A DNA stretch of 64,000 nt from Eledone cirrhosa (GCA_964016885.1 OZ024755.1:13330001-13394000); one strand, 5' to 3'. Counted from the first letter of the stretch, positions 3,891-58,446 are shown. Notes: generated from the letters alone by a model not told the origin. Made by a program: numbers and translations.

Positions 3891-4156
3891 CAGACATACA
3901 TGTATCTGTTAGAAATACATGCACACACGCGCACATATACATCACATACACACACACATAAACAAGCACACAAACACACACACATTAGTTGAAAGAGATT
4001 ACAATGTTTCACTTTAAAATGTTCTTATTACATATTAACCATTACATATGTTTCACAGATGATTGGCTTGAGGTTTTTATCGATGTGATAGACCTGACTC
4101 CAGTATTGATCCACTCATCAAATCAAAATGAGATGAAAATGTTTTGATTTCAATTC

Positions 4157-4254
4157 ACACATCTGATGAGCAGATCAATACTGGACTCATGTAGTCATGT
4201 ATATTACATTGATAAAGACCTTGAGCCAATCATCTGTGAAACATAAGTAATGGT
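4157..4254 (+). ncRNA. type I hammerhead motif with a long (about 55 nt) loop II
   Basis: CAU-CUGAUGA-GCAGAU...AUCUGU-GAAA-C auaa GUA-AUG; the mirror copy on the minus strand of the left hairpin arm has palindromic GAAACAUAUGUA. Confidence 0.65.
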
Positions 4255-4443
4255 CAATATGTAATAAAAACATTTTAAAATGAAACTTCATTATCATATA
4301 CCTAATATATACAGTCATTCTGCTACAGCTCCAAGTAATTCACATAACCTAGACATACACACACACACACTTATATGTTTTATTATTTACTATAATGTGT
4401 AATGTTGTTGTTTGATATATAATATTTTGATATATGTCCTCAG

Positions 4444-4550
4444 GTGTCAATTACTTTTCTGCATGTCAATTACCACCAAAGAAATCTTTTGGTACAAAGA
4501 ACCAAGATTTCATGGAGAGTAAAAAAGAACAATTTGAACAGTATCTGCAA
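4444..4550 (+). CDS. SNX14: SNX14 coding exon (GVNYFSACQLPPKKSFGTKNQDFMESKKEQFEQYLQ)
   Basis: cctcAG / GTaagt; 107 nt fits phase 1 to 0; PX proline-rich loop and helix. Confidence 0.95.
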
Positions 4551-5743
4551 GTAAGTAACAAATAATATCTATGTATTTGTATTAGTAACTTAAGTTATAT
4601 GCTATATGCATATATAGCACATTATATATATACAAATTTAAGGACTCAAAACATATCAAATATGTTAGAATTTTGTGCTTCTCAATAAACAAGCTCAATA
4701 GACTTTATCCAGAGCAATAATAAATCATCAAATGTAAAAGATATATGTATATATATATAGAGAGAGAAAGAACCATGTATCTTGCAGAATACACAATATA
4801 TTGTATATATACTAAATACATATTACAGAGAGGAATATGTACTCTTGATAGAATCAGAGTACATATTCCTCTCTGTAATATGTATTTAGTATATATACAA
4901 TATATTGTGTATTTTCCAAGATATATGGTTCTTTCTCTCTTTATATATACATAGATCTTTTACATTTGATATATATATATCAAATGTATCAAGAGTTTTT
5001 GTAGACTAAATTAAGGAAAAAGAGCACTCTCTGTTAAATACAGTGCTAAAGTATATTATTATAAAGTATATTATTTTACATGATTTACTTAGGAGAAAGG
5101 CTTCTGTGAGTATTATCCTCAGACTGAGGAACTTGTCTGAATGTTTGTAACAGAGTGGACTCTGTTAAAAGTAACCAAAAGCTAGGTGATGGTGTTAAAC
5201 CAGGTGGTGGAATAAATCTATCCCTCATGTAGGCCACATTGAGATTATGAACTCTAAGTGCAACAAGCTGCAACAAACACGGCAAAGCATCTCAAACAGC
5301 TCTAACGATTTTACTAATTCCTTGGACTGGTACTTCATTTTATCAACCCTTAAAGGATGAAAGGACAAGTTAATCATGGCAGGGTTTGAACTTAGGGAAT
5401 TTGTCTTGCACCTTAACAACTCTGCCAATTCACTGCTTTAACTCTTAACATCATATAATGGTTTAGCAGAAACCATCTAAAAATGGGTTTGTTAATTCAA
5501 ACATTTGCAGTACTTTTACTAGTGAACAGATCCTTGTGAAAATTCTTAATATTAAAAGGAGGACATAAATTTCTGATGTGATATAGTCATAGGGCTGTTT
5601 TATAATTTTTCAAGACTGTCTTTGATAATGCAGTTTCATGTGGTACAAGATGTTAAGTGTGAAACAGAGCATTTAAGAAGCCCATAGAGAATGTATTTAC
5701 ATTTAACAGACTTTTTATAAATTCAGAATTTCAAACTGAAATA

Positions 5744-6069
5744 CAGTGGAACTTCAGTTCACAAACTTAATTCATTCTTAAAAGCCATTCATCACCCAAA
5801 ATGTACATAAACTGAAACTATTTTTCCCATATGAAATGTTGAGAGAGAGACTGTGTGTGAAAGATAGATAGATATCACCATAGTAACTTACTACACAGCA
5901 AGTGACGCTTACCCACCGATACTCTAAGCTTGTTGCCAACCACTGTTGCCAGCTTGCATGTTCATTACTCAAGACACCATTCATGAACTGAGATATTTTA
6001 TGTTCAGAAAAATTGTTTGTGAACCGATTTGTTTGTGATGAGAGATGTTCGTGAAGCGAGGTTCCATTG
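5744..6069. mobile_element. pogo/Tigger-like MITE
   Basis: TA|cagtggaacttcagttcac ... gtgaagcgaggttccattg|TA: imperfect TIRs with TA TSD. Confidence 0.7.
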
Positions 6070-6195
6070 TACTTATGAATGAATTTCTTCCCTATAATGT
6101 TTATTGCACCACTATATCTACTTTTTATGTTATTTCTGTTTAGTCAGTTGTCTGTGACATTTTATTGTATATATTTCTGTTTCTAATTAATGTAG

Positions 6196-6298
6196 AAACT
6201 TGTTGCCATCCCCCAGTTACGAGGAAGTGAGTTACTTTACAACTTTTTGACCTCAAAAGATGAATTAACTTCAAGTTTTCTACCAGACATCAATATTG
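6196..6298 (+). CDS. SNX14: SNX14 coding exon (KLVAIPQLRGSELLYNFLTSKDELTSSFLPDINIG)
   Basis: tgtAG / GTaaag; 103 nt, phase 0 to 1; matches recalled KLLQHPELSNSQLLADFLS...LPDVNLG. Confidence 0.93.
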
Positions 6299-6899
6299 GT
6301 AAAGATAACTTTTATGTTTTTCTTTTTGTCTCAATATTACTTGATCTATTGGTTATTAGGGAAATAAAAAAAAGCAAAATATGGGGAAAATGTTCGTTTT
6401 TGCACTCTGTGTTAAAATTGACACTGAACCAACATCTGTAAACAAAATTACGTGCAATTTGCTTTTAAAGTAGGCTAAAAGTAACGGCTATCAAATGTCA
6501 AAAAGAAAACTTTCTTACTAACCCAACATTTTATTACCGCATGTTTTTGCCTTTCCTGTATAAGATGCACCCATATTTTGAAGAAAAAGTTACGAGGAAA
6601 AATGTTTTACTCTTATTAAAAAGGATTAACTCTTTTGATATGAAACTGCCTCTGTTTAAAACCTTTTGTTTTAAAGTGTTTATATTTATCTAAAAATCTT
6701 CCACCATAATTCTGATCCACCTCTGTCACTCACACATGTGACTGATCCACTTAAGTCATTTCTACTTATGATTAATCCATCTTAGTCGCTGTCAGGTATT
6801 TGACAGAGCCAGATTCTCACCTCCAATTTATGTTGTAACATAAAATGTTCTTATATAAAATTATGCTGGAATGTTTTAATTTAAATAGGAACCCTTTAA

Positions 6900-7120
6900 C
6901 CCTTTATCATTTACATTACTCTATATATAGTATTGTATTTTTGTAGTAAAGGCTTTACCTTACATAATTATCTCACATAATATTGAATCTACAACATTTT
7001 GATGTTATTTATTTTGAGAACAATATGTTAACGTCAGTATGAGTGGCTAATTATGGCCAGATTGAACAGAAAGAGGTGAGAGAATTCTGGCCGTATACAG
7101 CTGGTTTAGATGGTAAAGGG
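6900..7120 (+). mobile_element. piggyBac-like MITE (about 220 bp), copy 1
   Basis: TTAA|ccctt...aaaggg|TTAg; homologous to 13942-14161 and 15287-15507. Confidence 0.7.
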
Positions 7121-8408
7121 TTAGAGTGTTTATATTTATTTAAAAATCATAATTTTATCTTAGAACTTTTGATAAATTATGTCCCAAACACTAACTTAAT
7201 AATGAAAAAGTTATATTTCTAATCTTTTCAAGTTCTTGAAAATCATAGATAATGTCTATTATTAGAAATATGGTGATGAAAGGGTAAAGAAGGATGGCTT
7301 TGTGGTTAAAAGGTTTTGCTTTGCAAACCCATGGTTTCAGGTTTGATCCCACTGCATGGCATCTTGGGCAAGTGTCTTCTATTATTGCTTTAGGCTGACT
7401 AATGCCTTGTGAGTGAAATTTGGTTTACAGAAACTGTGCGGAAGCCCATCGTATATACTAGAGTCAGCTGAAAATTTCATAGGCTGACTATGGAGGAGTT
7501 ATGCTAGAGCTGTGAAATTTTGCATGCATTCATTTGAACTCTTTTTATTAATAACTGCATTGTTTCTTTCTAGGGACTATGTTAAAAAATAAACCTCATT
7601 TTGTCATTCCATGAAAGTATCTTGTTCAGCTTTGTGTGAACGTTGACACCACTTTGGTGATGTTTGCTTATGTCTCACTATTTAGCATTTTAATGGGTGA
7701 AAATCGGCTGAAAAAATATCAGATTTAAAAATAAATTTGGGTTGGCATCAGGAAGGGTGTCTGGATGTAGTGTACTGCTTGGAGAAGTCTTATCCAACCT
7801 ATGCCAACATAGAAAATAAAGTAGCAGTCCATAGGTGGTGGATAAGCGGAATTGTTAAAGAATCAGACAGGATGCCCTGCAGTATCTGATCCATTTCTGC
7901 CAGGAGTTGTGACCAGCAGATACTATCAGTAATGAAAAGACCAATCGAACTATAATTGCCATGGTCAGATCTGACAGATCTTTTATTTTCTATTTGAAAT
8001 GCGTCATTTGTTTGTGAGAAGCACTTTCAGGCTTTATTCCAGTTTAAAGCTAAACATTTTACTACCTTCTGAGAGAGCTCTTGTAGCATGATATTACCAG
8101 GGAAATATAATATAACTGTTCTAAGATGACTTATTGTTCTTTAATGTTAGTTACAGATAATGATTTCTTTATTGGTTTACAGATAATACAATGTAATAAC
8201 ATGTGATTGGTAACAATGTCATTGTCATTTACAGCTGCAGACAAAACTATAAGTTTAATAGGATGTAAGGTGAATATCCATCTTTATTTGTTTGCTATGA
8301 ATGAGGCATTCATTGGTAGAAATAAAAGCCACAAGGAAACCATATATTTATTGCTTGATTAACTCTCTTGTTTGCTGAACTGAATTTTGACTGTTTTATT
8401 GCTTGCAG

Positions 8409-8449
8409 GAAAAATTGTCAAGTCTGTTCCAATGAAACTACTGAAAGAG
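8409..8449 (+). CDS. SNX14: SNX14 coding exon (GKIVKSVPMKLLKE)
   Basis: ttgcAG / GTaaga; matches recalled GKIIKSVPGKLMKE. Confidence 0.93.
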
Positions 8450-12264: not shown

Positions 12265-13941
12265 GTAAATTTATTCATTTATTTTTTATTTTATTTTATA
12301 AACTTTTGTGACTCTCTCTCTCTACACACACACACATACAGAATAAAAACCAAGTAAGCTTTTTTTTTATATTCGATATCCAAACCACATATGTACATTT
12401 TTACTGTGCAGTATTTGAAACAACTTGTCAGCCCCTAAATATATATGTATTCATAAATCTTTGTTGTTCTCTCCAGCATTTTAAATATGATATATATATA
12501 ACTTCAAAATTTTATTAATGTCACTGTGTATCTATTTTAGAATAGGTGCACCACACCTTTGCATGTTGTAAAAAGTAACTAAAAGGTAGGTGTAGGGATG
12601 GGCATCTGGCTTTAAAACATTGCCTTAAAAAGTTCTGTCCAGCCCATGTCAACATAAAAATATTAATATAAAAATGTTGATGCTCTTTATCTGTATACAA
12701 GGTACATAACTCTGCTTGCCTTACCTGATCTACCAAATTTACAGCAGCTTTGCTTCCTATTTCATACAACCTGCTGGTAGAGCAATGGCTAACCATGAAG
12801 CTGTAGAACAACATTTTTCCAACACAAAGTAAATGTATCAATTTACAAGAAAATCATCTCTATAATATTTATCATCAACATCATTATCAACACCAACATT
12901 GTCATCATCTCATTGCTATCATGGTCATTACCATCAACGCCATTATCCCCCATCATCGTCCTCATCAACCCCATCCTCATTATCATCATTACACCATCAT
13001 CATCATCATATGTAAGGTGTTAGTGTTGGTGCCATGACAAAAAGCACAGTCAGGTGAGTAGTGCTGGTACCATGACAAAAAAGCACCCAGTTCACCCTGT
13101 AAGGTGGGTAGTGCTGGTGCTATGACAAAAAAAGCACTCATTCCATCCTGCAAGATGGGTAATGCTGGTGCTTTGAAAATGCACCCATTACATGCAATAA
13201 AGTGGTTGGAGTTAGAAAAGGCATCCAACCATAGAAAACCAAGCTAAAAATGAAATGTATGAGTAAAGATATGGCCACTTGACATATCTTGCCACAGGAT
13301 CTAACCCAAGCAAGCATGGAAAATAGACAAATTAATGGTTATGATGATGGTAGTGTCTCTCATTAGAAATATGGTAATGAAAGGTTTAAAGAGTTTATAT
13401 TTATCTAAAAACATTTCATCATAATTTTATGTAAACAGCTCAATAATGAGAATTTAGGATATTGATGATGGAACAGGATATGTGGAATGTCCATCATTAT
13501 GTTGGATGCAGGTGCAGGTTATACTTGATAGATGATGATGATGTTGGTAGTGGTGGTGGTGGGGTTTATTGTTCATGGAAAGTAGATGTTAAACAGTGGT
13601 GATGATGATGGTGGTGGGGTGGTGCTGTCTATTGTTCATGGAAAATAGATGTTAAACAGTGATGATGATGTTGGGTTTAATGTTCATGGAAAGTAGATAT
13701 TAAACTGGTGGTGATGGTAGTGGTGGGGTGGTGCAGTTTATTGTTCATGGAAAATAGATGTTAAACAGCAATGATGATGATGATGATGGGGTGGTGGTGG
13801 AGTGGCGAAGGCTTTATTGTTCATGGAAAATAGATGTTAAACAGTGATGATAATGATGGTGGGTTTAATGTTCATGGAAAATAGACATTGCAAAACAAAC
13901 CAACAAATCACACTACCTTTACTTCAAAGTTGAATGATTAA

Positions 13942-14161
13942 CCTTTTAACATTTACACTACTGTATATATACTATTGTATTTTTGTGGGAAAAGCTTTAT
14001 ATCACATAATATCTTACATAATATTGAATCTATGAGATTTTGATATTATTTATTTTGAGAACAATATTTTAACATCAGTATGAGCGGCCGGTTACAGCCG
14101 GTTTGAACAGAAAGAGGTGAGAGAATTCTGGCCGGATACGGCAGGTTTACATGTTAAAGGG
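13942..14161 (+). mobile_element. piggyBac-like MITE copy 2
   Basis: TTAA TSD on both sides; cctttt..aaaggg TIR. Confidence 0.75.
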
Positions 14162-14985
14162 TTAATGGTGGGAAGATTATTCAATTTTCTGGCATATTAC
14201 TCCAGCCACATGCATAAGTCTACATTTATGAAAACCTATCCCATTTATAAAAATCAATAGGCAGAAAACAATGTAAATGAAGACAAATAAAATATTCATG
14301 TAAAGATCATTTAGTTGTATTGGGACAACACCATGCATTGTATTGATATACAATGTAAGTTTATATCTGTTTATTAGCTGCAGCTTATATTGGCACATGG
14401 CTAATTTTACTATTATTGTGATCTATGTTTGACAAATAAACTCTTTAATCTCCCTAACATTAATTTTGAGTCTATCATATACCTTGTTGTGTAATGCAAG
14501 CACAGAAAGCATCTTACATTCTGTGTAACATGTTGGAAATGTTAAAATAAATATTGGATAACTTGGCTAATGCTGATATCAGATACAGTCATATCTATCT
14601 ATCTATCTGTTTGTTTGTTTGTCTGTTTGCCTATGTGCCTGTCAGTCTGTATGTCTGCCTGTCAATTTCTCTGTCTATTTGTCTGTCTGTCTCTCTTTGC
14701 TTGTCGTTTGTCTGTCATCTATCTATTTGTCTCTCTCTCTGTCTATCTGCCTACCTATCTGTGTATCTATCAATCTATCTCTTCAACTACATATATATTA
14801 TACATACACCAACTATGTATTAATATTAACCTATCCTCGACTACAGTTACATACATTTTCTAATTAAATCATAAGTGTAATATTAACATATATTTAACTA
14901 TCTTTCGTAGGTAAATCTTTTGTATATTAATACTAACCTATATTTAACTATATATATTTTGTAGGTATTATCTACAATATATTAA

Positions 14986-15216
14986 CCCTTTCATGATTGT
15001 ATTTCTAATGAAATACACTCTATTTCAATTAATTAGTGAAGAATGTTTAGGGATTTATTAAAATTATTAATTTTTTCATTAGTAAGATAGTAACTTAATG
15101 TAAGGTTTTTATATAAAATTATGCTGGAAGATTTTAATTTAAATTGAAAACATTTAAAAGGGGTAACTTATTTTATAGAACCAGAGCCAAATTTGGCCAG
15201 ATTGGTAACTAAAGGG
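14986..15216. mobile_element. second TTAA-flanked MITE family
   Basis: TTAA|cccttt ... aaaggg|TTAA; internal motifs recur near 6630-7290, 13360-13450 and 56990-57190. Confidence 0.6.
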
Positions 15217-15286
15217 TTAATATTAACCTATGTTTTACAACATATATTTTATAAATATATCTCTACAGGGAATTAGCTCCTTTTAA

Positions 15287-15507
15287 CCCTTTAGCATTTA
15301 AACTGGCCATATCTGGCCAGAATTCTCTCACCTCTTTCTGTTCAAACCAGCTGTAACCGGCTGCTCATACTTATGTTAAGGTATTGTTCTCAAAATAAAT
15401 AATACCAAAATCTCATAGATTCGATATTATGTGGGATAATTATGTTAGATAAAGACATTACCATGAAAATACAATAGTAACTATAGAGTAATGTAAATGC
15501 TAAGGGG
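15287..15507 (-). mobile_element. piggyBac-like MITE copy 3 (inverted)
   Basis: TTAA TSDs; reverse complement of copies 1 and 2. Confidence 0.75.
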
Positions 15508-16599
15508 TTAAAGGGTTCCTATCTAAATTAAAACCTTCCAGCATAATTTGATATAGGAACATTTTGTTATGTTACAGATAATATCTTAATGAAATAATGG
15601 TTTCTGATTTAGGCACAAGGCCAACAATTTTTGGGAAGGGGAAAGTCAATTAAATCAATCCCAGTGTGTTACTGGTACTTTATTTATCAACCCCTGTAAG
15701 GATGAAAGGCAAAGCTAACCTCAGCAGGATTAATAATGAAATAATAAACAATTTTAGTGAACCCTAAAATTTTCCATTAATTAGAAATATGGTAATAAAA
15801 GGTTGAATACTAACCTCTCTTTTACTACAACTACATACAGGCCCTTCAGTCTTTCATTCATATCTTTAATATTCCACCTTTCCTCATACTCCATTTTTCA
15901 GCATCAGCACTGTCATTTTACAGAGTGTACTGGGAGCACTTTATCATGGTAACAGCAGTACTACTTTACAAAGTGTACTGGGTGCACTTTATTGCAGCAC
16001 CAGCAGTACCACTTTACAAAGTGTACTGGGTCCACTTCATTTATATATTGTACTGGTTAATGAAAATCTAAGCCAAGCAGCTGTCCATATCTCACTTCCA
16101 GATATAATCGTAAACTATTGTCCAGATGTTGTTAATGTCCTTGAGAAAGAACCAAAGAGATATGTACTCTATAGTTTCTATTTTTCACTGTAAAAATCTG
16201 ACATCACACATGTATAGGTGAAAATCAATACCATCATAAACATACAACATAAAACTTTTCACCACCGTTTAATGTCTATCTTCCACGCTAGCATGGGTTT
16301 AGATATGTATATATACTCTCCTTAGTATGCTTGCTTTCATATTTCTCCTTGCTTCCCTTTTCTCATTGTATTTGTATATAAACAAGTACATAGATATAAG
16401 GAGAAAGGGAGACCAAGGGGAAAAGGAGAGCAAAGAGAGTAATGAGAAAAGGAGAGCAAAGAGAGTAATGGGAAAAGGAGAGTAATGGGAAAAGGAGAGC
16501 AATGAGAAAAGGAGAGCAATGAGAAAAGGAGAGCAATGAGAAAGGGAGAGCAATGGGAAAAAGGAGAGCAAGGAGAAAAGGAGAGGTTAAGGCAAATAT

Positions 16600-20829: not shown

Positions 20830-21869
20830 GTAAGCTCCATTGAAATATAAAGTTTTCTTTACATGTTTTAGTAAAACAATTTCATACTTTTTTTAAATGC
20901 ACCTTTTTTTATATTTTAAATTTATACACACTAGTGAAATAAAATTTCTTTTTTTCTTATCATTTAACCCTTGAGATATAAACTGTTGACTGGATTTTGA
21001 CAAAGTTTGATCTCAGTAGTCAGAAGACTCAAACTAGGTACCACAAAGGTATTATTCTCATTAGATATATATATCTTTATTATATATAGAAATTACTTCT
21101 ACAGGACTACAACTGTTTCATTCATAAGAAATCATCAAGAATATATGCTCAAATTATGGGCAATGAAATCTCAGAAAAAAATAACTCTCACGTATACTAT
21201 GCACTGACTTTTCTTTAGTATTATATGGAAAACAAATGTCTTGTCATTTATTATAATTAGTTTATAAAATGCATTGAAAAAGTTTACACATCCTAAACAA
21301 AACAAAACACAAATTCAAAAGCAGCTCTGAACTTTACTAGCCTAGGCCCATAAAACTGCACCTGCTGTAAATTCAACATTACGGAAATCACATAATTATG
21401 TATTTTTCTAGAAAATCGATTTGATTTTGATAATGATGGTGTACTCGAATAGGTTTATAGTCAATTTTACTATTCAGTTTGTTTCGTGATGCACATATTG
21501 TTGTGTTGCCTCCGGAAAACAAAGTGTTTATCATTTAAGCATAAATTGTTATAAAAATCCTATAACTTATTATTATTATTATACATTTAAAAAAAAAATG
21601 GTTTTTGGATATTTATTTTGCACTTCAGCTCTTCAGGATCTGCCAAAAAAAATGTTTTTAAAGTTAATAAAAAGAAACTATATTAATGAAAATTTATTCA
21701 GTATTTAAAATTTTCAGTAGTTTTCAGAGAGTGATTTTAAACCACTGCAATCAGTGATTCATATGTAATTCCATCGGCCATAGACCATGTTGACGCCATA
21801 CATATTTATAGCAAAAATTTCTATCTAGATTAAAACAAAAGAAAAGTGAAACATTTTTGTTTTTTTTAC

Positions 21870-22474: not shown

Positions 22475-23119
22475 ATGAATGAGACTAAAACAAAATATCT
22501 GGTAGAGAATGTTGAGAAGCCCGAGGGGATCACTAATGTAGGCAAAGATTGGGAGCAAAGATTAGGAGCAAAGATTGGGAATATGGAAGATGATGTGGTT
22601 GAGAGGAAGAGCAAGGCCTGGGCGGTATACCACAGCTTGAGATCGGTGTGGAAGTCGGACGTTCGTAAAGACCTGAAAATCCGCCTCTACATTGCTGTAG
22701 TGGAGTCTGTGCTGCTGTACGGGTCTGAGACTTGGACACTGACCAAGAAACTCACTCAGATGGTGGATGGGTGCTACACGAGAATGCCGAGGATGGCTCT
22801 GAACATTAATCAGTATACACTGAGGATGAAAAACTCAGAGCTGTATGGGAGCCTCCCAAAAGTCAGCTCAAAAGTGACACAGAGGAGACTGAGGTTAGCT
22901 GGACATGCTCACCAACATCCAGAGTTGACATTGCACTCAGTGCTCCTGTGGGATCCCCTACATGGACACACTGGAAGAGGAAGACCAAGGTTAACATATG
23001 TTGATGCCCTAAGGACAGACACTGGTCTGTTGGAGATGCAGGACATGGCAGCGATGATGAGGGACAGAGACCGCTGGAGAGAACTTGTCCATGGATCTTG
23101 GGAATTTTACCCGCCCTAG
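22475..23119 (+). mobile_element. 5'-truncated non-LTR retrotransposon, second RTE/RTEX-like family, ORF C-terminus
   Basis: AVVESVLLYGSETWTLT...RRLRLAGH...GRPRLTY...DRDRW; flanked by TA/TACA repeats. Confidence 0.88.
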
Positions 23120-23872: not shown

Positions 23873-25867
23873 AGTTTGCAGGCTTCTCAGGCTGGTACAT
23901 ATCCCAGTTTCTGTGGTGTGGAGCAACTGAGATTATAAAACTCCTTTCCTGGACAGGATGCCAGTTCATCGCAGGGTTAAACCCCCACCTATTGCTACTG
24001 GTACTCATTTTCAGTAACGTGAAATGAAGTGTTTTGCTCAACAAATCAACATGCAGCCCAGTCCAGCAATCGAACCTTCGGCATTATGATCATAAGTCCA
24101 ACACCCTTACCACTAGGTCATGTATCTCCACTCATTATACTGTAGCAACATGAAATGAAGTGTTTTGCTCAAGAACACAACACACAAGCCAAGAATCGAA
24201 CTCACGACATTATGATCGTAAATCCAACACCCTTACCATTAGGCCATATGCCTCCACACTGACATAATGCTATCCGATTTCTGTTTATAAACATCATACA
24301 CCACCCAGCTGAATAATAGAACTTCTGAGTAATATTACATTCTGAGTAATATTACGGATGTTTAAAAAGTTATCTGAGAACCTTGCTATTAAAATGCATT
24401 GGCTGCCCAGTTACTTATGACTCTGTGTATAAATGTTTCTGCAATTTCTCATATATGTAGAAACAGTTTAGTATGTTTTGTTTTTGGCATTCCTTCAGGG
24501 TTTCTTTTTGTTACCACCAGGCACTCATTAATTATTCCAACACTTAAAACTCATTCGATGCCAATGTTTCCATGCCCTTTAGTATATTCATCATCATCAT
24601 CATCATCATTATTTTATGTTTGCTTTCCATGTTGTCATGTTGGAAAGGTTGTCAGGTCAAAGACCAGATGTGTGAAAGTGACCTCATCTAGCTCATAATT
24701 CTATATTTGGCATGGTTTCTACAGCTGGATGTCCTTCCTAATGCCAACCATCTTGCTGAGTCATCAGAAGAAGGGAGGTTGGTGTAAAAGCCAAACTTGC
24801 TATCTTCAATTCAGTATTTGTGCTGAGCCATACATATGGTCAGTAATCTTAGGTAATGACTGAAAGATTACAATCGTGAATAGAAGTTATAGGACATAAA
24901 TAAATACAGACACGTATGTATGTATGTATGTATGTATATATACATACATATATACACACACATGGTGGCTGCCAACTCGTTTTCGAGTACGGTCACTACT
25001 TTATATCCATGTAGGAGAACCCCTACCGATGCACTGAACGAGTGTGACTTTTTAGTCCAGCCAGCGACTTGAAAACTCTGGTACAAACACTACACTTGTG
25101 ACAATTATTGACACATAGTGTTTGGCCCATAGTACCATGTGACGACAAGTGCAGAGAGATCTCCAGATACAAAGCAATGCCTGTGCCGTGAAGCTTTTAT
25201 TGTGAGCAAAGGCACTGCACAAAGCCAGTCCCACTCTCTTAACCAAGTTGATATTTACCAAAAGGAAGAACATGTCAACACCATTGGATACCATCAGGGT
25301 TGCAGATGTTATATCAGAGTTTTCCTTCTCCTAGAATTCTGCCTTGACAAAGGCTAAGGGGTCATCTCTCCCGGTGATTTTAGATGGCCATTGACTCTTA
25401 AGAGCTCCTTTGCCCTTTGACATGACAGGTTTTGTTTTTAGTCCTGCAGGATGTCCAAAGTCACCCTCCTCACCAAGAAACCTTTGTGGGGTTGCCAGTT
25501 TAGTCGCCAACGATCCGACCATGGGACAGGTTATACTGGGATACATGTTAACCAGTAGCACCAACATATACACACATACTTGCGAGTTTCCATACAGTTT
25601 CCATCTAACAAATTTCACTGAGAAGGCATTGGAAGGTACCTGAAATCATGTGGTTGCCAAGTGAACATGTTAACCACACAGCCACATCTGCACCTATATA
25701 TATATATTTATTATTAGTACAGATTAGTAAAGTTAAGCAAAGAATTGCTGCTTTCACCTTATTCCGGGATCTTCTGAAACTGCTCTATGGGTTTTATATA
25801 TATATTATATACATATATAATCCTTATTGAGCCTTCTTCAGATTTGGCCTTCATAATTATTATTACT

Positions 25868-25940
<73 letters not shown>

Positions 25941-32537: not shown

Positions 32538-32575
<38 letters not shown>

Positions 32576-36701: not shown

Positions 36702-37160
36702 AATGGAAGCTGCGGAGTGGGGAGACCCAAGAAGACCTGGGATGAGGTGATAGGGGCCGACCTTACCCAGTTGCACCTCTCAAAGGTGATGACACATGAC
36801 CGTGACCTCTGGCGTCATGCAGTAATACAGAGTACCCGACCTCCCATGGGTACAAGCTGAAGCATATAGACAATATGCCCCCACATCCTCCCACTGCAAA
36901 GTGGTAGTGGAGGTGCCACGGCAAAAAAGCACCCAGCCCACACTGTAAAGTGGGCATGTAGGCGCCACGGAAAAAAGCACCCAGCACTCACTGTAAATGA
37001 GGTTGGTGTTAGGAAGGGCATCCAGCTGTAGAAACCAAGCCAAAATCAGTTCCTGTATGAGCAAGGCATGGTCAGCCAACCAGACACTGCCCACAACAGG
37101 ACAACCCGTCTAACCCATGCTAGCATGGAAGAACGGACGTAAAACGGTGATGATGATGAT
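36702..37160 (+). mobile_element. RTE LINE 3' fragment
   Basis: NGSCGVGRPKKTWDEVIGADLTQLHLSK..DRDLWR plus 3'UTR and (GAT)n, inside a TA tract. Confidence 0.9.
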
Positions 37161-37180
37161 ATATATATATATATATATAT

Positions 37181-37528
37181 ATCATCATCATCATCATCAT
37201 TTCATTTTACGTCCGCTTTTCCCTGCTTGCAAGGGTGGGACGGGAACTGATTCTGGCTTGATTTCTACAGCTGGATGCCCTTCCTAACACCAACCTCATT
37301 TACAGTGAGTGCTGGGTGTTTTTTTGCCGTGGCACCTGCACGACCACTTTACAGTGGAATGTTAGGGACCACAGTCCCTATCATCTCATTTCTACAGCTG
37401 AGTAAACTGGAGCAATGTGAAATAAAGTGTCTTGCTCAAGGAAACAACACATCACCCGGTCTGAGAATTGAACTCACAACCTTTCGATTGCAAGGCCAAT
37501 GTTCTAACCACTAAGCCATGTGCCTTCA
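37181..37528 (-). mobile_element. tRNA/CORE-like/RTE-tail SINE copy
   Basis: highly similar to 34103-34432; TA tracts on both sides. Confidence 0.87.
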
Positions 37529-39999: not shown

Positions 40000-40060
40000 T
40001 TTCATTTACCAGTAGTTTCTTGAAAGGAAACGAAATTTGCTTTCATTCATCAGAATGAAA
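40000..40060 (-). ncRNA. type I hammerhead ribozyme motif
   Basis: minus strand UUUCAUU-CUGAUGA-a UGAAAG [13 nt] CUUUCA a-GAAA-CUacuG GUA-AAUGAAA; 7-bp stem I, 6-bp stem II with an A.A closing mismatch. Confidence 0.75.
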
Positions 40061-41933: not shown

Positions 41934-43729
41934 GACCAGGTCATGAAGGTCACGGAAAGAGTAATAGCGCAGCTAATCAGAGAGAGAATTGACCTAGATG
42001 AAATGCAGTTCGGGTTTGTGTCAGGCAAAAGTACCACAGACGCTCTTTTCATAGTACGACAACTACAAGAGAAGTACCTAGCTAAAGGTAAACCCCTCTA
42101 CTTAGCTTTTGTCGACTTGGAGAAAGCCTTCGACAGAGTCCCCCGCTCCATTATCTGGTGGGCTCTTAGAAAACTAGGCGTTGACGAATGGCTTGTGAGG
42201 GCTATACAAGCCATGTATAAAGAAACAGTCAGCAAGGTTAGAATTAACAACGAATATAGTGAAGAGTTTAGCGTAAAAGTCGGCGTCCATCAGGGCTCTG
42301 TTCTCAGTCCACTACTATTTATTATTGCCCTTCAGGCCATAACAGAGGAGTTCAAGACAGGCTGCCCATGGGAACTCCTATACGCAGACGACCTGACACT
42401 CATAGCGGAATCAATGGCCGAGCTAGAGAAGAAATTCCAAACATGGAAGCACGGCCTAGAGTCAAAAGGACTTAAAATTAACCTGGCTAAGACCAAAGTA
42501 CTAGTTTGTAGGAAAGAAAACAAGGCGGCGGTCCCTTCTGGGAAATGGTCGTGCTCGGTGTGTAGGAAAGGCGTAGGTAGAAACTCCATTTTATGTCCTA
42601 AATGCAAAGTATGGGTGCATAAAAGATGCAGTGGGATCACAGGTAGGCTAACTAAGAACATAGATTTTACATGTGGCCGGTGCTCTGGTGCAATAAGTAG
42701 CAGCAAGTGCCCACAAACTACTAGCTCTTTCAATTGCGCAGAGGGTTCTATAGAAATAGTGGACAGCTTCCGTTACCTGGGCGATAAAATCAGCAGTGGG
42801 GGAGGGTGCTCTGAAAGTACTGTAGCTAGAGTCAGAACTGGTTGGAAAAAGTTCAGAGAGCTTATACCACTATTAGCTGCTAAAGGGTTCTCACTAAAAA
42901 TGAAAGGCAGGTTGTACGATGCCTGCATACGAACAGCAATGCTGCATGGCAGTGAGACCTGGGCATTGTGTGCAGAGGATATACGCAGACTAGAGAGGAA
43001 CGAAGCTTGCATGCTCCGCTGGATGTGTAACAGTAATATACGTGAACGGCAAAGCATAAACGAACTAAGGAATAAATTAGAGATAAGAGGGATCAGATGT
43101 TGTTTACTCGAGAGAAGGCTACGTTGGTATGGACACGTGATGCGCATGAAAGTCGATAGCTGTATAACAAAGTGCAGGGCAATAAAGATAGACGGTAGTC
43201 ACGGAATAGGCAGACCTAGAAAAACCTGGGACGAGCTGATAAACTCCGACATCACACACTTACACCTCTCCAAGACAATGTCACTGGACCGAGACCTTTG
43301 GCGGTACTCAGTAACAGAGAAGACCCGCCTTACCTAAATATATAGTAAAACCTACTCCAGCCAGTAGGCATCTCTAACAAATACACCCCGTCCCACCACC
43401 CCCACCCGATCCACACCACCCCGTTCTATGTAAAGTTATGTTGGTGCCGCGCCATCGAGGCCGAAACAAATGAGATCGTGTAGGTGTCACGACAAAAAAA
43501 CACACAGTCCACGCTGTAATGTGGCCGTGTAGGCAACACGGTAAAAACCTCCCAGACCCACACTGTAAATGTGGTTGGTGTTAGGAAGGGCATCCAACTG
43601 TAGAAAACCTGCCAGACAGTCCTATGCGAGCAAGACAATCACTCTTGCCTCAAGTGGGACTACCCCCGTCCAAACCCATGCAAGCGTGGAACACGGACGT
43701 TAAACGCTGATGATGATGATGATGATGAT
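41934..43729 (+). mobile_element. 5'-truncated RTE LINE; uninterrupted RT C-terminal frame 41934-43337, 3'UTR and (GAT)n tail
   Basis: [48 protein letters not shown] and GRPRKTW motifs; no stop in 467 codons. Confidence 0.96.
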
Positions 43730-45968: not shown

Positions 45969-47169
45969 TTAAATATAGAAATGGCTTTTACAGGACTAGA
46001 ACTGTTTCAATCGAAGGAAATCATCAGGGCTTTCCTTCGAATGAAACAGTTCTAGTCCTGTAGAAGCCATTTCTATATTAAAAATGTATACTCTGTTATA
46101 TATTGAGTGCCTTACTTACTCTGGTTACCCCTGATGGAACCCAGGATACACATATCTATCTCTCTTGAGATATGTTTGTGTATGTACCTATATATGTCTG
46201 TGTATTTATATATGTACATGTGTCTGTATGTGTATCGATGAGTGTTTGCTTGTGTTTCAATGTATATATAGATATGTATGTAGTGTATGTGCTTATATAT
46301 GTGTATGTGTGTTTGCTTATGTATGTAAGTGCACTTGTGTCTATATGTGCATAGATGTGTGTTTACTTCTGTCTGTGTATATGTGTGTGTGTGCATGTGT
46401 TTATATAGATATGTATGTGTGTATATATTTCTGTCTGAATGTATATGTAATTTATGTTTAATATTCTCACCATAGCATTAACAAACAGTTCAGTTATATT
46501 TTATCAAGAGAAAATATTCTCTCAGAAATTGTTGTGAGCAAATAGTAACAAATAATTGCATTCACAATGGTATGTCATTTATAATGTTATGTCATTTATA
46601 ATTTCTCTTCTAATATACATTTTGTAATGATTATTATTTTTATTATTATTGATGGCTTGCATAGTAAATATGATAATTGTTGGATCTTATACTGCTTACC
46701 GAGTCTCAACAAAGAACATTAGACAGATACTACATTCCTACAGTGGCCAACAGGGCAGTCTTTTGTAGGAGCGTAATTTGGGATTTGATACACTCTCAGT
46801 TTTAGTGGTGATAAAAGCCCCCTAAATTTAAGGTATATTTACTTAAGATACCCTTTCAGTTTTAGGGGTGTCAAGCCCCCTAAATTATCTTGATGTTAGG
46901 TGGTATTGACCACATTTGTCCAATTTTAATTTTTGTTATTGTTTTTTTTAAATTTCTTCTAATGCATGTTGTGGTCTTCTGGGACAGTAACATCAATGAT
47001 CTGGCAATTATTATTATTAGGGCACTGGATTGGCAGTATAGATAGACCATCGGAAATATGCTTTGCAGTATATAGTTACGGCCCTTTCAGTTCTGAGTTC
47101 AAATTCTGCCGAGGTTAGCTTTCATCCTTACGAAGTCGATAAAATAAAGTTATTAGTTGTTAGGAGCAG

Positions 47170-51000: not shown

Positions 51001-51355
51001 TCATCATTTCATCATCATTTTTCATCATTTCATTTTACGTCCACTTTTCCCTGCTAGCAAGGGTGGGACGGGAACTGATTCTGGCTTGAATTCTACAGCT
51101 GGATGCCCTTCCTAACACCAACCTCATTTACAGTGAGTGCTGGGTGCTTTTTTGCCGTGGCACCTCCACGACCACTTTGCAGTGGAATGATAGGGACCCC
51201 AGTCCCTATCATCTCATTTCTACAGCTGAGTAAACTGGAGCAATGTGAAATCAAGTGTCTTGCTGAAGGAAACAACACATCACCCGGTCTGAGAATTGAA
51301 CTCACAACCTTTCGATTGCAAGGCCAATGCTCTAACCACTAAGCCATGTGCCTCC
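51001..51355 (-). mobile_element. tRNA/CORE-like/RTE-tail SINE copy
   Basis: nearly identical to 34103-34432. Confidence 0.87.
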
Positions 51356-52465: not shown

Positions 52466-52532
52466 GTAGCCATTTCTATATATATATAGTGACGAACATA
52501 AGTCAATTGCATGAACTCATAATCCTTTATTT

Positions 52533-52588
52533 ACTGCTATATATATTTCGATGATAGCCATTGAATGGCTATGACCTCATCAGGCAGT
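52533..52588 (-). ncRNA. type I hammerhead ribozyme motif (intact core)
   Basis: minus strand reads ACUGC-CUGAUGA-GGU C AUAGCCAU uca AUGGCUAU C AUC-GAAA-U auau AUA-GCAGU: 5-bp stem I, long stem II, minimal palindromic stem III, AUA cleavage triplet. Confidence 0.85.
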
Positions 52589-52777
52589 TAGTCAGTTCTT
52601 AGATGTGCCATCTCTGTGTTTATAGTGTTGATGGTATCAGAGCCTTGGGACATATATATATGGTATCAGAGCCTTGGGATATATATATATGTGGTTACAC
52701 AACAGTTAGTTCACCATACCGAGAACAATTGGACATGGACATGGTTATAACAACAATAGACATGGTTATAACCATGT

Positions 52778-52827
52778 CCATTACGAGCTGAAGATCCGCT
52801 AAGGTGAAACAATTGTTCTCAGTATGG
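52778..52827 (+). ncRNA. minimal type I hammerhead motif
   Basis: CCAU uac GAG-CUGAAGA-u CC gcuaa GG u-GAAA-C aauu GUU-CUC agu AUGG; palindromic stem III AACAAUUGUU; stem I has an internal loop. Confidence 0.65.
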
Positions 52828-53121
52828 TGAACTAACTGTTGTGTAACCACTTCTACCTAACTCGTCCCATGGACTGAGTGCTCTACCACTACGGATATTA
52901 CCTCCCAATGTTCTACCACTATATATATATATATATATTCAATTGGATTTGACTCTATTTATAAGCTCCTATTAATATGTCAATGGTGGAAGATTTTATC
53001 GTCACGTTAAGAGATGGTAAAAGATGGAAGGGTAGCAGAAGATTGATGGTATTAATGAGGAATCAGTAATATTGGATACAAGCAAATGCTACGAGAGATC
53101 AGAGGCTACATACATCCACCA

Positions 53122-53538
53122 GTGTCCTGTATTCTAAGCTACACATAGCACCAGACTTTACCAAAATGACCTGTATTCCAAGCTATGCTTAGCACCAGGC
53201 TTTGCCAAAATATCTTGTATTCCAAGCTACACATAACACCAGACTTTATCAACATGTTCCATTTTCCAAGCTACACATAGGACTAGGCTTTACCAAAAAT
53301 GTCCTGTAGTCCAAGCTATACATAGCATGAGACTTTACCAAAATGTCCTGCATTTCCAAGCTACATGTACTACCCCTCTTGTATCAGACTTTACTAAAAT
53401 GTTCTGTAGTCCAAGCTACACATAGCACCAGACTTTACCAAAATGTTCTGTAGTCTAAGCTACACATACCACCCCTCTTGTACCAAAATGTCCTGTAGTA
53501 CGAGATAAACTTAGCACCAGACTTTACCAAAATGTCCC
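53122..53538. repeat. about 44-bp degenerate minisatellite, about 9 copies
   Basis: unit tgtcctgtattccaagctacacatagcaccagactttaccaaaa. Confidence 0.85.
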
Positions 53539-54285
53539 AACTGGTTACCAATCAATTACATATTTTGATGTTATTTTTATTGATCTACAGACAACTGATA
53601 GTTTCATCATGATATTAAATATATATTTGTGTGTGTATGCCTATCTATTTATGTGTGTCTATGTATGTATACTTGTAAATTTGTATGTGTGTCTATGTAT
53701 GTGTGTATGTGTATATCTGTCTATGTATGCGTATGTCTGTCTGTATGTATGTGTATGTCTATGTATGTGTGTGTTTGTGTATGTATGTATATGTATGTCT
53801 GTGTATGCATGTGTGTGTATGTGTCTGTATGTCTGTGTCTATGTGTGTGCATGCTTTACTGTTTGATGTTGTAGTTACCATATCACAGCTCTTATTTTCT
53901 GCTCTAGTTGATTGAAATTCATGTTAATTTCATACACCTTTGTCTCCTCCTCCCCCTCACCTGAAGTTCTGTGATATAATCATTTATATTGAACAGATTC
54001 CAATAAAGGTAGCAGACATATGTCTCATTATTTGAAGAATTAGAGTAGGAGGAGACCCGTGAAAACAACCAGCTTATCCACACCCCACCCCACACTGACC
54101 CACATCACATAGCTCCACACAGCCCTGACAGATCTTGAAATAATGCATGTTGGTCATCCATCACTTGTGATGATGAGTGCTCCAGTTATTTGAACAATGG
54201 AACAGCCTGATTGTGAAATTAACATGCAAGTGGCTGAGCATTCTACAGATACATGCACCCTTAACATAGTCTGGATTTTACATAC

Positions 54286-54615
54286 ATCATCATCATCATC
54301 ATTTTACGTCCGCTTTTCCCTGCTTGCAAGGGTTGGACGGGTCCTATTCAGCACAGCATCTCTCCACTTGTCACGGTCCTTCGTCATCTCCTCGGTGAGT
54401 TTCAGTGATCTGAGGTCTGCTCTCACCACCTCCGCCCATGTTTTACGTGGTCTACCTCTGCTGCATCTTCCTTCTACTGGGATTTCTTGGCACTTCTTTA
54501 CCCAGCGGTCATCCTCCATGCACATCACATGTCCATACCATCTCAGCCTTCTCTCCTGCACACCACAACTTATCCCTCTTATACCCAGTTTCTTTCTCAA
54601 CTTGTCTATGGAAGG
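54286..54615 (-). mobile_element. RTE LINE 3' fragment
   Basis: [21 protein letters not shown]...GRPRKTWAEVVRADL; (GAT)n tail. Confidence 0.9.
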
Positions 54616-54652
54616 AATATATTAGGTTAATGCTTGTACTAGCAGGAAGAGG

Positions 54653-54691
54653 GTCTTAACGTTTCGGATGCTAGTCCTTCATCAGTAGAAA
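54653..54691 (-). ncRNA. Penelope-type minimal hammerhead motif
   Basis: minus strand ucua-CUGAUGA-a GGA cuagca UCC-GAAA-CGUU aaga; palindromic AACGUU stem III can only pair as a dimer; stem I weak. Confidence 0.6.
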
Positions 54692-55612
54692 GAATGCGGA
54701 ATAGGATAGATTGAAAGGACAGGTGGGTTGGGATTGGAAAAAATATCTTTAGATAAAAATAATATATAACATTTGTGTGTGTGTCTTCATATTCAACATC
54801 ACAAGCAATGATATTTGTTTATGTTCTATATAAACAAAGATCTCACTGCCCACCAGTTATGTGTGTGAGCATTAATACCCTACTTAGAAACATGTGAGGG
54901 TCATCTCCATTAATGACAACCAACCATAGAACACTACCTCAAAAAGAATCTCCTCCAACCCATGCCAGTATGGAAAAATAAACGTAAAACTGATTATTAC
55001 GATGATGATGATTGTGTGGTGTTTGATTAGGTAGGAGTTTTGAAGAGTTTCTGCTATATCTGAAGTTTTTTGATTTGTCATTAATAAACCAGAATTTGTC
55101 TCAGAGATTTTCAATTCTTTCTACGCTTGCTGTATATCATTATTCCTTATTGTCCTGCATCCTTTCCTGCTGGCCATTGGCTCTCAATATAATTTGTTGA
55201 ATAACTCTTACTTTTCACCCACACAAATCTGATTATGATAAATTAGTTATAAGTAATTGAAGTGTCGATTAATAAGATATAAGCCTTTGGGAGAGAGGAA
55301 TTAAATTCTTCCACGTTCAATAAATTCAATATCTTCTGAAATTCAATAAAGAACTCATTTCTGTTACTAAAAATCAAGTTTTCTCTGGGGAAATTTCGTA
55401 AAGTACCTGGATAAAACTGGAAATCGAACTAATGGGAAAAAATATAAAGCAAAACTAACAAACAAAAACAACAAAAAAGCAACCCAAATAGTTCCACATT
55501 TTGTTTTTAAAAGATTCTTCTTAAATTCCATTTATCTTCATTAGTTAAAATCTTCATGAACTGGATAAAAATCATTTTCTCTCAGATTGTCAGTGTGTTT
55601 AAAAAGATTAAG

Positions 55613-55643
<31 letters not shown>

Positions 55644-56634
55644 TAAATGTATGTATATATATAATGTATGTGTATGTATATATTCATATATATAAGGGAA
55701 ATGGATGTTAAATGTTGAAGACAATGTAATATACTCTTCCTGTTACTGGAAAGTAGATACAATTCTCTCATCATTTACAATCAAATATACGCGAGTCATT
55801 GCTTGTGTGTATATGTGTGCACATGTGAAAGTAATCCCCACAGTAAATAGCTATAATAAATTCGATAAGTTTATAAATACCATGGCTCTCAATATATTTA
55901 TTTTCATTAATTACATAAAAGACAAATGTCTGATACACTGTTGTTCAACTGTCCATTCCTCTCTCTATATCGTTACAACTAATATTTCATTTAACTCATT
56001 AATTTCCTGCAAATAGAAGCTAATTCCTTAATTCCTTAAAAACAATAAATATTCTGTCACACAAAATGAAATAGTTTAATGAAATATGAACATCTGTGAA
56101 CTTAAATATTTTTTGGTTTCAAAATATTCGAAATTTCATGAAGTTTGGAAAAAGTAAGGTGATTTATTTTGATATTCTTGTAAAAAATTTTTTTTCATAT
56201 ATTATTTAGTCAGAGAAGACAGGCCAGTATCTATAGGTGTATTCAGGGCTTCCAAAATTGGTGGGTGTGAGGGAGGAAGGACAGTGTCCTCAAACTAGGT
56301 TGTGGCAGTGATAAACTGGGTAATTACTACCCAAGCAGGTCACAGCAGGTTTTGAACTAGGATTGAAAATTGCCAGCACTGTGGGAGCTCAGCAGTCAGC
56401 ACAAACTATTTATAATATATAAACTCTACTTTCTCAAGTATTGTGTACTTAGCTGAACATGGTCTTACTGGTCTAGACTAGTAACTTCCAATCTCTCTCT
56501 CTGTATGTATATATATATATATAAACAACTGACCATAGCAGAACGTAAAAATAACCGTTAAAAACTTTACTTTTCTCTAATATTATTTCTCCAAGAAAGA
56601 CTTTCTTTTTTATGTTTTCTTTGTGTTGCTTCTA

Positions 56635-56693
56635 ACTATCTGAAGAGGTCATAGCTGTTGAATTGTGGCTATCACCAAAATATATATAATGGT
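56635..56693 (+). ncRNA. degenerate hammerhead, same family as 52533-52588 (GAAA mutated to AAAA)
   Basis: ACUAU-CUGAAGA-GGU C AUAGC...GCUAU C ACC-AAAA-UAUAUAUA-AUGGU; stems preserved by compensatory changes. Confidence 0.7.
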
Positions 56694-56807
56694 AATGAAA
56701 GAAGTAAATTATGAAATGTTGTTTATATATATATATATATATCTTGCAGCTTCTTTTTATAAAGATGATAGCCTGATGATCAAAATATATTTTCTATTTG
56801 CTTTTAG

Positions 56808-56899
56808 ATATCCTAGTGTTTGCAATTGGCGAGCAGAACCACCATGAAGGAACCAAATTAATTCTTGACTTATTGCAACAACCAAAACTCAATAAACAG
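56808..56899 (+). CDS. SNX14: SNX14 coding exon (NILVFAIGEQNHHEGTKLILDLLQQPKLNKQ)
   Basis: ttttAG / GTaaca; contains the PXC signature LQQPxLNKQ. Confidence 0.95.
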
Positions 56900-57980
56900 G
56901 TAACATGTAATGTTCATGTTGTGTAAAACTTCTGGGATAATTCTTGTCTATATTGCTAATGAAAGACACTGAATACAAATTTTGAAAAACTTTTGAAAAT
57001 TATTAAGAATTTGGATGGATTTAGTAATATATTCAATTTTCTCATCATTAAGCTGGTATTTTTGGAACATAACTTAACAGTTCTAACATAAAATATGATG
57101 AAAGGTTTTAGATAAATGTAAGCATTTAAAAATAAACAGCTAAGTATTGTAAAACCAGGGGAGGTTTCAGGTGGTTTGGTAGCAAAAGGTACATGTTTGT
57201 ATATATATATATATGTGTGTGTGTGTGTGGTAATATGGTAATATTAGTACAGATCCACAGGCAGGGTTGGGCTATTTAGAAGTTGACTTTCAAATTAAAT
57301 TCATCGGGATATTCTTGTCTTTATTGTTGCATAGACTTTTTTCATTGTTTAGTCAGAGAGGATAGGTCAGTGCACACAGTTGTTTTCAGGGCCTCAGTTT
57401 GTTTGGTTAGAGGGAGAGAGGAAAGTGTCCTCAAACTCTGGAAATATGGCCCAAATACTTGCAACAGAGTAGACTCTACTACAGATAGATAGTGCTTTCT
57501 ACTACAGGTAAATGGTACCTTTAGATAGGATGGAAAACATGGAGATTAAAATGATGAGAATATACAAAATTTAACCAAAACTGTAAAATGTGTAAGTAAC
57601 TACATTGGCGTGTGTAAATGTACATCTTTTTTTAATGTGTTCATCTTATAAAGCAATTAGTTGTATATTTTTCTGAAGACTTAGATTGAATCGAACAAGA
57701 TTTGAAACCTGAGTCATATCTTTCAGTTGATTTAGGTGTTTGGCAATATACATAAAAACATATGTTGGTGTGTATATATAGTAATAATAAATGTGAAGAC
57801 TAAAATCCGAAGAGGGCTCGATAAAGATTATATATATATTTATAAAATATATATAAATATAAAAACCCGTAGAGCAAATATTTATTATAAGAACAGATTA
57901 AAGTTTAAGCAAAGAATTGCAGCTTTCACCCTTAACTGTTAAGGGTGTAAGCAGTGATTCTTTGCTTAAACTTATAATAA

Positions 57981-58019
<39 letters not shown>

Positions 58020-58406
58020 TATCCGAAATAAATTTAATTAAATTAAATTAAGGGAGTCATGTCCGAGACATGCACCATATCCACCGTAGAATAAGCTCAA
58101 AGATTCCAATGAATAGATCCGAGCATTTTATATCAACTAGAAATTGATTGACATATATATATATATTTAAAATAAACACATGAAACAATCACATGGGATA
58201 ATTTGTAAAGTGTGTAATCACACATAGCTAGGTAGGTAACTAATTAAAGTTTAACTAGAGCTTCAAATATTACCTTTTAAAAAATGATTAAACTTTAATT
58301 AGTTACCTATCTAGCTATGTGTGATTACACACTTTAAAAATTATCCCCTGTGATTGTTTCATGTGTTTATTTTAAATATATATATATATGTCAATCAATT
58401 TCTAGT

Positions 58407-58446
<40 letters not shown>

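Follow-up and report, generated by a model that had tools for sequence, protein, structure and literature searches.

The closest described relatives of the structures considered here are insertions of Penelope-like elements (PLEs). The accessible text of Arkhipova et al. 2013 (PMC3846280) describes head-to-head inverted pseudo-long terminal repeats (pLTRs), with palindromes at the junctions and a tail on one arm, and that of Craig et al. 2021 (PMC8557442) reports a bias towards (TA)n targets and calls both the formation of tandem and inverted structures and the role of the hammerhead ribozyme open. Minimal hammerheads, including opposite-strand pairs separated by 100-700 bp, are described in the available sections of PMC4209133. 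According to the accessible part of Frangieh et al. 2024 (PMC11167929), the PAc enzyme cuts and extends both target strands, two starts of reverse transcription define the tail, and hammerhead cleavage is dispensable in vitro. Here we analyse seven inverted repeats, P1 to P7, in a 64,000-nt stretch of the Eledone cirrhosa genome (GCA_964016885.1, OZ024755.1:13330001-13394000; hereafter the window, with coordinates counted from its first letter), and we use the term turn for their strand-inversion point. P1 and P3 to P6 very likely belong to the Penelope-like inverted-pLTR-plus-tail insertion class, and a slight balance of the evidence places P2 and P7 there too. All would be new members of an already described insertion architecture, in which only the position of the turns and the occurrence of twin-priming-type copies look modestly new.

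The seven inverted repeats listed in a preliminary description of this DNA are all present where it placed them. Their arms measure 41-126 bp, with an ungapped identity of 88-98% and spacers of 1-78 nt, and between the arms there are 31 substitutions (21 transitions and 10 transversions) plus indels. P1 (4006-4286) has arms of 118 and 126 bp, a spacer of 37 nt and 88% identity; P2 (4727-4970) has arms of 123 and 118 bp, a 3-nt spacer and 97% identity. The arms of P3 (32425-32540), P4 (45972-46079) and P5 (52691-52850) are 54, 49 and 41 bp long, with spacers of 8, 10 and 78 nt and identities of 94, 96 and 98%, respectively. P6 (57879-57984) has arms of 58 and 47 bp around a 1-nt spacer (91% identity plus a 12-bp deletion), and P7 (58129-58413) has arms of 126 bp around a 33-nt spacer (98%). 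The window is AT-rich (GC mostly 30-43%), with about 23% simple repeats and many dispersed repeats. An ungapped scan of its repeat-masked sequence recovered six of the seven, and none in each of 10 shuffles; P6 was missed with a score below the cut.

Six of the seven palindromes have a (TA)5 or longer tract no more than 5 nt from the end of an arm (0.40 expected). The exception is P1, where the sole tract is one of CA at a distance of about 20 nt. P3, P5, P6 and P7 each combine a long arm that carries an extension with a short arm that sits on TA, and the layout of P2 and P7 is likewise that of a long arm and a short arm on TA. In P4, both arms finish at the family 3′ end. The one-sided extensions measure 70-106 nt, and the palindromic units span 100-330 bp and contain neither an open reading frame nor a direct pLTR tandem. 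An inverted, 5′-truncated copy stands head to head with the forward copy in P1 and P3 to P6, as judged from hammerhead polarity; for P2 and P7 the polarity is presumed. An eighth inverted repeat, at 36941-37356 (117-bp arms, 92% identity, 183-nt spacer), is absent from the preliminary list; here an abundant repeat is present twice, in opposite orientations, and the two copies meet at a TA tract.

Hammerhead motifs coincide with the turns more often than expected from random placement in the window. The core-only descriptor taken from the methods of PMC8557442 finds five motifs (shuffle mean 1.37; 0 of 100 shuffles reach five), and these lie at two of the seven turns, P4 and P5 (0.05 expected, P ~0.001). 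Our own structural descriptor, which gives full and half motifs, was retuned post hoc, its first version having found three motifs and missed P1, P4 and P5. The revised descriptor finds six full motifs, compared with 0-4 in shuffles, and 11 half motifs; because shuffles give 2-11 of the latter, half motifs alone are weak evidence. When core-only motifs are taken together with structural full and half motifs, four of the seven turns (P1, P3, P4 and P5) lie within 15 nt of one, the largest distance being 11 nt (0.20 expected, P ~1.5e-5), under a null that places turns anywhere in the window and not within an element. Judged on sequence, P6 would be a fifth hammerhead-associated turn, falling in the apparent loop II of a degenerate hammerhead-like core that is known from a paralog and from reads.

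The motifs differ in how complete they are. CUGANGA and GAAA boxes with stems II and III and a NUH triplet are present in P1, P4 and P5, and loop III is palindromic in P5, in P3 and in the left arm of P1, but not in P6. At the position of the G10.1-C11.1 pair, P1 has G-U. The predicted cut site is 7-88 nt 3′ of the turn in all five of P1 and P3 to P6, which suggests that the template RNA was uncut, and the idea that the turns are ribozyme-cut RNA ends was rejected on this ground. In most cases the minimum-energy fold is not that of a hammerhead, and sub-threshold Rfam matches to microRNAs were obtained at P2, P3 and P5. The preliminary description had the repeats beginning at 4006, 45972 and 52691 invert at a hammerhead. 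This stands for P1 and P4 and needs correction for P5, where the loop III palindrome is indeed the start of the long arm, while the fold has its apex at a 20-bp palindrome upstream of the core. Its statement that two more turn shortly upstream of a GAAA box concerns P3, at a distance of 11 nt, and P6, a locus that is itself coreless and has a single intact GAAA box. Proximity of palindrome centres to hammerhead cores, proposed there in general terms, is thus seen for four of seven in the window test but not for P2 and P7. Hammerhead-like motifs without palindromes occur at 403-486, 26319-26344, 29128-29166, 40007-40053, 52525-52591, 54611-54703 and 56632-56701; they represent at least four further families, and two pairs among them are homologous.

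The individual loci show where the strand inverts. In P1, the left arm (4006-4123, minus strand) is an inverted copy from the hammerhead core, which starts at 4121 with its first base changed. The right arm (4161-4286, plus strand) carries a type I hammerhead-like motif with CUGAUGA at 4163-4169, a long stem II (a region of 68 nt) and GAAA at 4238-4241. Pairing read by eye indicates that the right end of the 37-nt spacer between them (4124-4160) may contain the strand that forms the 5′ side of the forward copy's stem I. The arms of P2 lie at 4727-4849 and 4853-4970, the right one ending on a short TA tract. The long arm of P3 (32336-32478, minus strand) runs from the 3′ half of a hammerhead to the family 3′ end and then TA; this half comprises GAAA at 32467, a 4-bp stem III, a GAGCTC palindrome in loop III and GUC ending at 32445. 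The 54-bp short arm (32487-32540, plus strand) is attached to a TA tract. About 50 nt from it, across the shared tract, begins one of two long interspersed nuclear element (LINE) 3′ fragments (32588-32953 and 22750-23115) that are 96% identical.

P4 and P5 contain their cores within the palindrome. The forward copy of P4 (45972-46030, minus strand) has CUGAUGA at 46027-46021, within the spacer, and GAAA at 46008-46005, and continues to the family 3′ end and TA; the inverted copy (46031-46079, plus strand) begins directly past the core and has the same 3′ end. In P5, the forward copy (52785-52919, plus strand) is a minimal type I hammerhead (CUGAAGA at 52788, GAAA at 52806, a CAATTG loop III and a 3-bp stem I) plus an extension to the TA tract at 52920. 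The inverted part (52691-52768, minus strand) is a 41-bp arm from the loop III palindrome, with its left end on TA and rearranged upstream sequence in the core's place. The apex (52759-52778) is a perfect 20-bp palindrome with its centre 19 nt upstream of the core. Adjoining the short arm, a 29-bp unit is present in tandem duplicate at 52631-52691, and it contains a motif that we take to be the tRNA-Met primer-binding site of long terminal repeat elements.

Reads were used to follow the P6 and P7 families. Of eight runs listed, four were aligned to 57250-58730 at 80% likeness. Three runs contain 83-85% of the sampled words of 52470-58730 and are possibly the source of the assembly, as X3 may be. 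Both palindromes belong to high-copy families: raw-read depth in X6 is about 4,400 on the left arm of P6, about 2,000 beside P7 and close to zero on unique flanks. The restriction-site-associated DNA reads cover few loci, with 2-7 starts per junction. The small shares of X1 (0.09) and X2 (0.05) turned out to be repeat-family matches and not an orthologous locus.

The long arm of P6 consists, on the minus strand, of a body (57879-57936), running from loop II through GAAA to a proximal 3′ end, and a tail (57773-57878), an optional family 3′ extension whose distal 3′ end, at about 57773, adjoins TA. The short arm (57938-57984, plus strand) runs from loop II to the proximal 3′ end and is attached to a TA tract. 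At 57936, 3,777 raw reads continue into the native core, with 352 more at 57932 and a median of 63 loose letters past loop II, so P6-family templates must reach well upstream. The native core opens with CAGAAGA in these reads, matching the paralog at 25.8 kb. The family has two fixed 3′ ends, each followed by TA, at 57879 (493 reads) and 57773 (616 reads). Tail end and body are contiguous in four X3 and four X1 contigs among those listed, under two species labels, from which it follows that on the minus strand the core natively precedes the body, and the body the tail. The read termini and the window paralogs spoke against taking 57773-57878 for a 5′ part. An attempt to find the P6-family motif in metagenomes gave three chance-like loci, none similar beyond the motif and one inside a fungal-looking long open reading frame.

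Strand switches from body to body are seen at seven different junctions among the 15 joints listed, and all seven have one side at 57935-57938. They are carried by 115 raw reads, four X3 contigs (depth 14-60) and two X1 contigs. One of them has no spacer, and an intramolecular hairpin presumably could not prime it. In three joints, part of the tail is connected to the body in inverted orientation, and five joints concern P7. For P7, the long side (58058-58287) comprises an extension, the left arm (58129-58254) and the spacer, and belongs to a high-copy family that continues past the turn; the short arm (58288-58413) is an inverted 126-bp copy on a TA tract, in which no hammerhead was found. 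As 500 reads continue past 58251, with contigs at 58086-58247, it is the right arm that was added as a copy, next to a native left arm and spacer. Two of the P7 joints, from 58207/58208 to 58335, fall on mirror positions of both arms and were rejected as alignment ambiguity. A core just beyond the P7 turn, suggested by a loose-end consensus (agreement 0.73, 20 contigs), was unconfirmed, with no fitting GAAA box. P6 and P7 flank a single TA tract (57981-58058), and two rare raw-read joints connect the two families.

These reads bear on whether the palindromes are fold-back chimeras of assembly or amplification, which we think hardly credible. The arms of P5 and P7 are 98% identical, as an artefact would have it, and no contig listed reproduces the P6 or P7 centre exactly; the contig spanning P7 has 13 differences and 8 gaps. 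Set against this are the between-arm substitutions and indels counted above, the recovery of most sampled words in three runs, and like junctions at single-copy depth or higher, in contigs of two species labels as well as in raw reads of another sample. The unique flank at 58454-58730 has no differences at a depth of 12.

It might also be that the link to the hammerhead is one of position only, produced by an RNA start just upstream or by short copies and without any stalling at the fold, an explanation that we find somewhat doubtful and that is compatible with either mechanism discussed below. No more than about 50-130 nt separate the hammerheads from the family 3′ ends, our null concerns placement in the window and not in the element, and non-palindromic copies are also cut near the core. 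The 3,777 P6-family reads that pass loop II, however, show templates extending well upstream, and the seven body-to-body joints all use 57935-57938, with none among the joints listed beginning in 57899-57934. One joint (57906/57892, with 29 letters between) departs from this pattern.

Paralogs in the window show that the arms are internal parts of dispersed families. Two copies of the P6 family lie on the minus strand. At 25705-25875, a forward body with the hammerhead-like core is cut 5 nt upstream of the core and joined to an inverted tail, and at 539-657 an inverted tail is attached to a 27-nt forward 3′ stub. In both, the tail is inverted relative to the body, with breaks at 57876 and 57878 and no duplication of the body, and this is a twin-priming signature. 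A single-armed copy of the P4 family at 21080-21137 (minus strand) has the hammerhead and the same 3′ end as both P4 arms. A single-armed P3-family copy at 25935-26051 (plus strand) is 5′-truncated in stem II, a few nt from the P3 turn, and has TA on both sides; another lies at 63935-63988. No single-armed copies of P1, P2, P5 or P7 were found in the window, nor were direct head-to-tail tandems seen among the window copies, although short stumps need not have one.

With arms internal to dispersed, mostly single-armed families, the palindromes are not miniature inverted-repeat transposable elements (MITEs), in agreement with the preliminary description. A very improbable reading is accordingly one in which MITE or foldback DNA-transposon families have these arms as their terminal inverted repeats. 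The TA flanks do resemble TA target duplications, and a family with true terminal repeats exists elsewhere in the window, but the arms are unlike between loci, junctions vary and the extension is on one arm. Fixed terminal repeats also fail to agree with the single-armed copies of P3, P4 and P6 and with the reads that pass the P6 and P7 turns, and the idea is largely refuted for P3, P4, P6 and P7; P1, P2 and P5 have no window paralog. The terminal-repeat family has TTAACCC-type inverted ends and six motif matches (6834-7173, 13938-14165 and 14982-15598); it is a candidate true MITE, which we assume to be piggyBac-like. A young family resembling short interspersed nuclear elements has three 320-bp copies, 96-97% identical (34107-34430, 37202-37525 and 51034-51355), and in two of them the minus strand matches a tRNA below threshold (28 bits).

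A GCTC..GAGCA hairpin-like motif connects some of the loci. It is found just outside the left arm of P2 (4693-4716, plus strand) and is common to the P6 and P7 extensions. In a post hoc find, three of its five window matches lie within 11 nt of the left arms of P2, P6 and P7. The motif is possibly a common recognition hairpin near the start of reverse transcription. Together with their layout, it suggests that P2 and P7 have the same origin as the other palindromes. The matches lie at 4693-4716, 57816-57876 and 58095-58125, and the three palindromes are otherwise unalignable.

We hold with about even confidence a reading that combines three parts: the Penelope-like class, priming of both target strands, and arrest and joining at the folded ribozyme. 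Short, 5′-truncated, pLTR-derived elements would target (TA)n, the element's enzyme probably cutting both strands of the tract. Each target 3′ end would then prime reverse transcription on the element RNA, one at a distal start, the tail end, and the other at a proximal start; two such starts are indicated by the two fixed ends, as seen for the P6 family. The hammerhead would leave the template RNA uncut, and complementary DNAs (cDNAs) would tend to stop at the folded ribozyme, where they may be joined head to head by short homologies, often loop palindromes. If both cDNAs covered the body, a palindrome with the tail on one arm would result. If the first stopped at the second priming site, the product would be an inverted tail without duplication, as at 539-657 and 25705-25875.

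A different route to the same palindromes, to which we give roughly three chances in ten in plain terms, starts from one cDNA that is halted at the ribozyme. Folding back on a stem or a palindrome, it would use itself as template over 40-126 nt and then be joined to the TA target. Such a single-cDNA fold-back is the template switch invoked in the preliminary description and resembles the self-priming proposed in the accessible text of PMC3846280, where palindromes at inverted junctions are interpreted in this way. Spacers of 1-10 nt in four of the seven palindromes would fit it well, as would the turns of P3 and P6 in stem or loop II, that of P5 at its perfect 20-bp palindrome, where additional switches are seen, and the short arms of P2, P3, P6 and P7, which end at TA-like microhomology. 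It leaves unexplained, however, the inverted-tail copies without duplication, the P4 and P6 short arms that end at the family proximal end, and the junction without a spacer, and an exact stem II priming junction (57931 to 57936) is absent among the 15 joints listed. A third route, post-insertion template switching of DNA replication at short inverted repeats such as stem II and the loop palindromes, independent of retrotransposition, appears quite unlikely. It could account for apices on DNA hairpins or palindromes (P3, P5 and P6) and for hammerhead-free P2 and P7, but short arms stop at TA junctions and family termini, none of the seven duplicates unique flank beyond TA as far as seen, and P7 also occurs in a high-copy family.

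A number of observations weigh against priming of both strands with arrest at a PLE ribozyme. No PLE reverse transcriptase or GIY-YIG motif is present in the six frames of the window, so membership of the class rests on non-coding signatures. Rfam gives no hammerhead at gathering score over the whole window, nor among the best 150 of 230 matches by E-value or in two small regions, and in the window scan P2 and P7 have no hammerhead motif, the nearest being 586 and more than 3,000 nt away. In P4, P5 and the P6 family, two opposed U residues stand in place of the G10.1-C11.1 pair. The P6-family core moreover has A for U4, its stem II is only 3 bp long and stem I is not adjacent, so that it is hammerhead-derived at best, and its tail of about 90-106 nt exceeds the described 30-40 nt. 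A strand switch occurs in about 3% of reads at the P6 turn (115 vs 3,777 + 352), which means that most copies of this family pass the ribozyme. The several switches of P5, and the location of its apex upstream of the core, fit fold-back self-priming at least equally well. The read alignments cover P6 and P7 only, the joints considered are 15 of 16, with 28 more dropped at repeats in X6, and turns further upstream escape detection as direct joints because the reference ends at 57936.

The earlier view of the palindromes as insertion scars of ribozyme-bearing elements is thus upheld by the internal family arms, by the single-armed P3, P4 and P6 copies and by the P6-family reads that continue past the turn, but is not shown for P2 and P7, where no hammerhead was found. 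Its link to Penelope is favoured by the head-to-head layout, the tail and the TA bias, and lacks the PLE protein motif in the window. Any target-site duplication is hidden by the TA tracts, and no empty orthologous site was found among the contigs of relatives. The sole Pfam reverse transcriptase match in the window belongs to a separate, uninterrupted LINE-type open frame of 467 amino acids (41934-43334, plus strand) that follows immediately on a 1.8-kb TA/TG tract. The frame contains RVT_1 (E 7.7e-30) as well as a finger of PHD-like type, and we presume it to be RTE-like.

Tentatively, the PLE hammerhead might act during integration as a stop-and-join point and not as a cutter, with a dimeric enzyme priming both strands. 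If true, stop-and-join would unite inverted pLTRs, one-sided tails and junction palindromes, and would also explain how a family of very high copy number can keep a core whose catalytic residues have changed (A at position 4). If turns do cluster at the folded ribozyme, upstream of the cut site, and inverted-tail copies break at an internal start, then the formation of these structures and the role of the hammerhead would become testable in the existing in vitro system, and also in any high-copy genome. Such palindromes are prone to mis-annotation as MITEs or microRNA hairpins.

How do these insertions compare with known systems? No publication placing an inverted junction on a hammerhead was found in a search of texts outside supplements and figures, where junction maps may stand. 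Twin priming of L1 elements, reportedly described by Ostertag and Kazazian in 2001, is said to give inversions that lack a fixed internal site and involve hardly any duplication or none. A 5′ inversion that breaks at an internal priming site is shared with it by the two P6-family copies (539-657 and 25705-25875), whereas the palindromes duplicate the body. Insertions of endonuclease-containing PLEs, as covered in the accessible text of PMC3846280 and PMC8557442, have in common with ours an adjacent inverted 5′-truncated copy, junction palindromes, a one-arm extension and (TA)n that hides target-site duplications. They differ in that ours are stumps of 100-330 bp without an open reading frame or direct pLTR tandem, with extensions of 70-106 nt compared with 30-40 nt there, and the accessible text of these two papers does not place its junctions relative to the hammerhead. 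With minimal hammerheads, as described in the available sections of PMC4209133, the loci share CUGANGA and GAAA boxes, short stems and a palindromic loop III (CAATTG in P5, GAGCTC in P3); P4, P5 and P6 differ in lacking G10.1-C11.1, P1 in its 68-nt stem II region and the P6-family core in having A at position 4. Non-LTR retrozymes (bioRxiv 10.64898/2026.07.22.740005, accessible part) are likewise short non-coding hammerhead units from PLE terminal repeats, but form head-to-tail tandems, whereas no direct tandem is seen among the window copies. The PAc Poseidon system in vitro (PMC11167929) resembles our reading in its two internal starts of reverse transcription, AT-rich targets, use of both strands and uncut RNA as the main template. 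There, the spacing of the starts equals a 30-40 nt tail, and inverted junctions are not analysed in the accessible part of that source.

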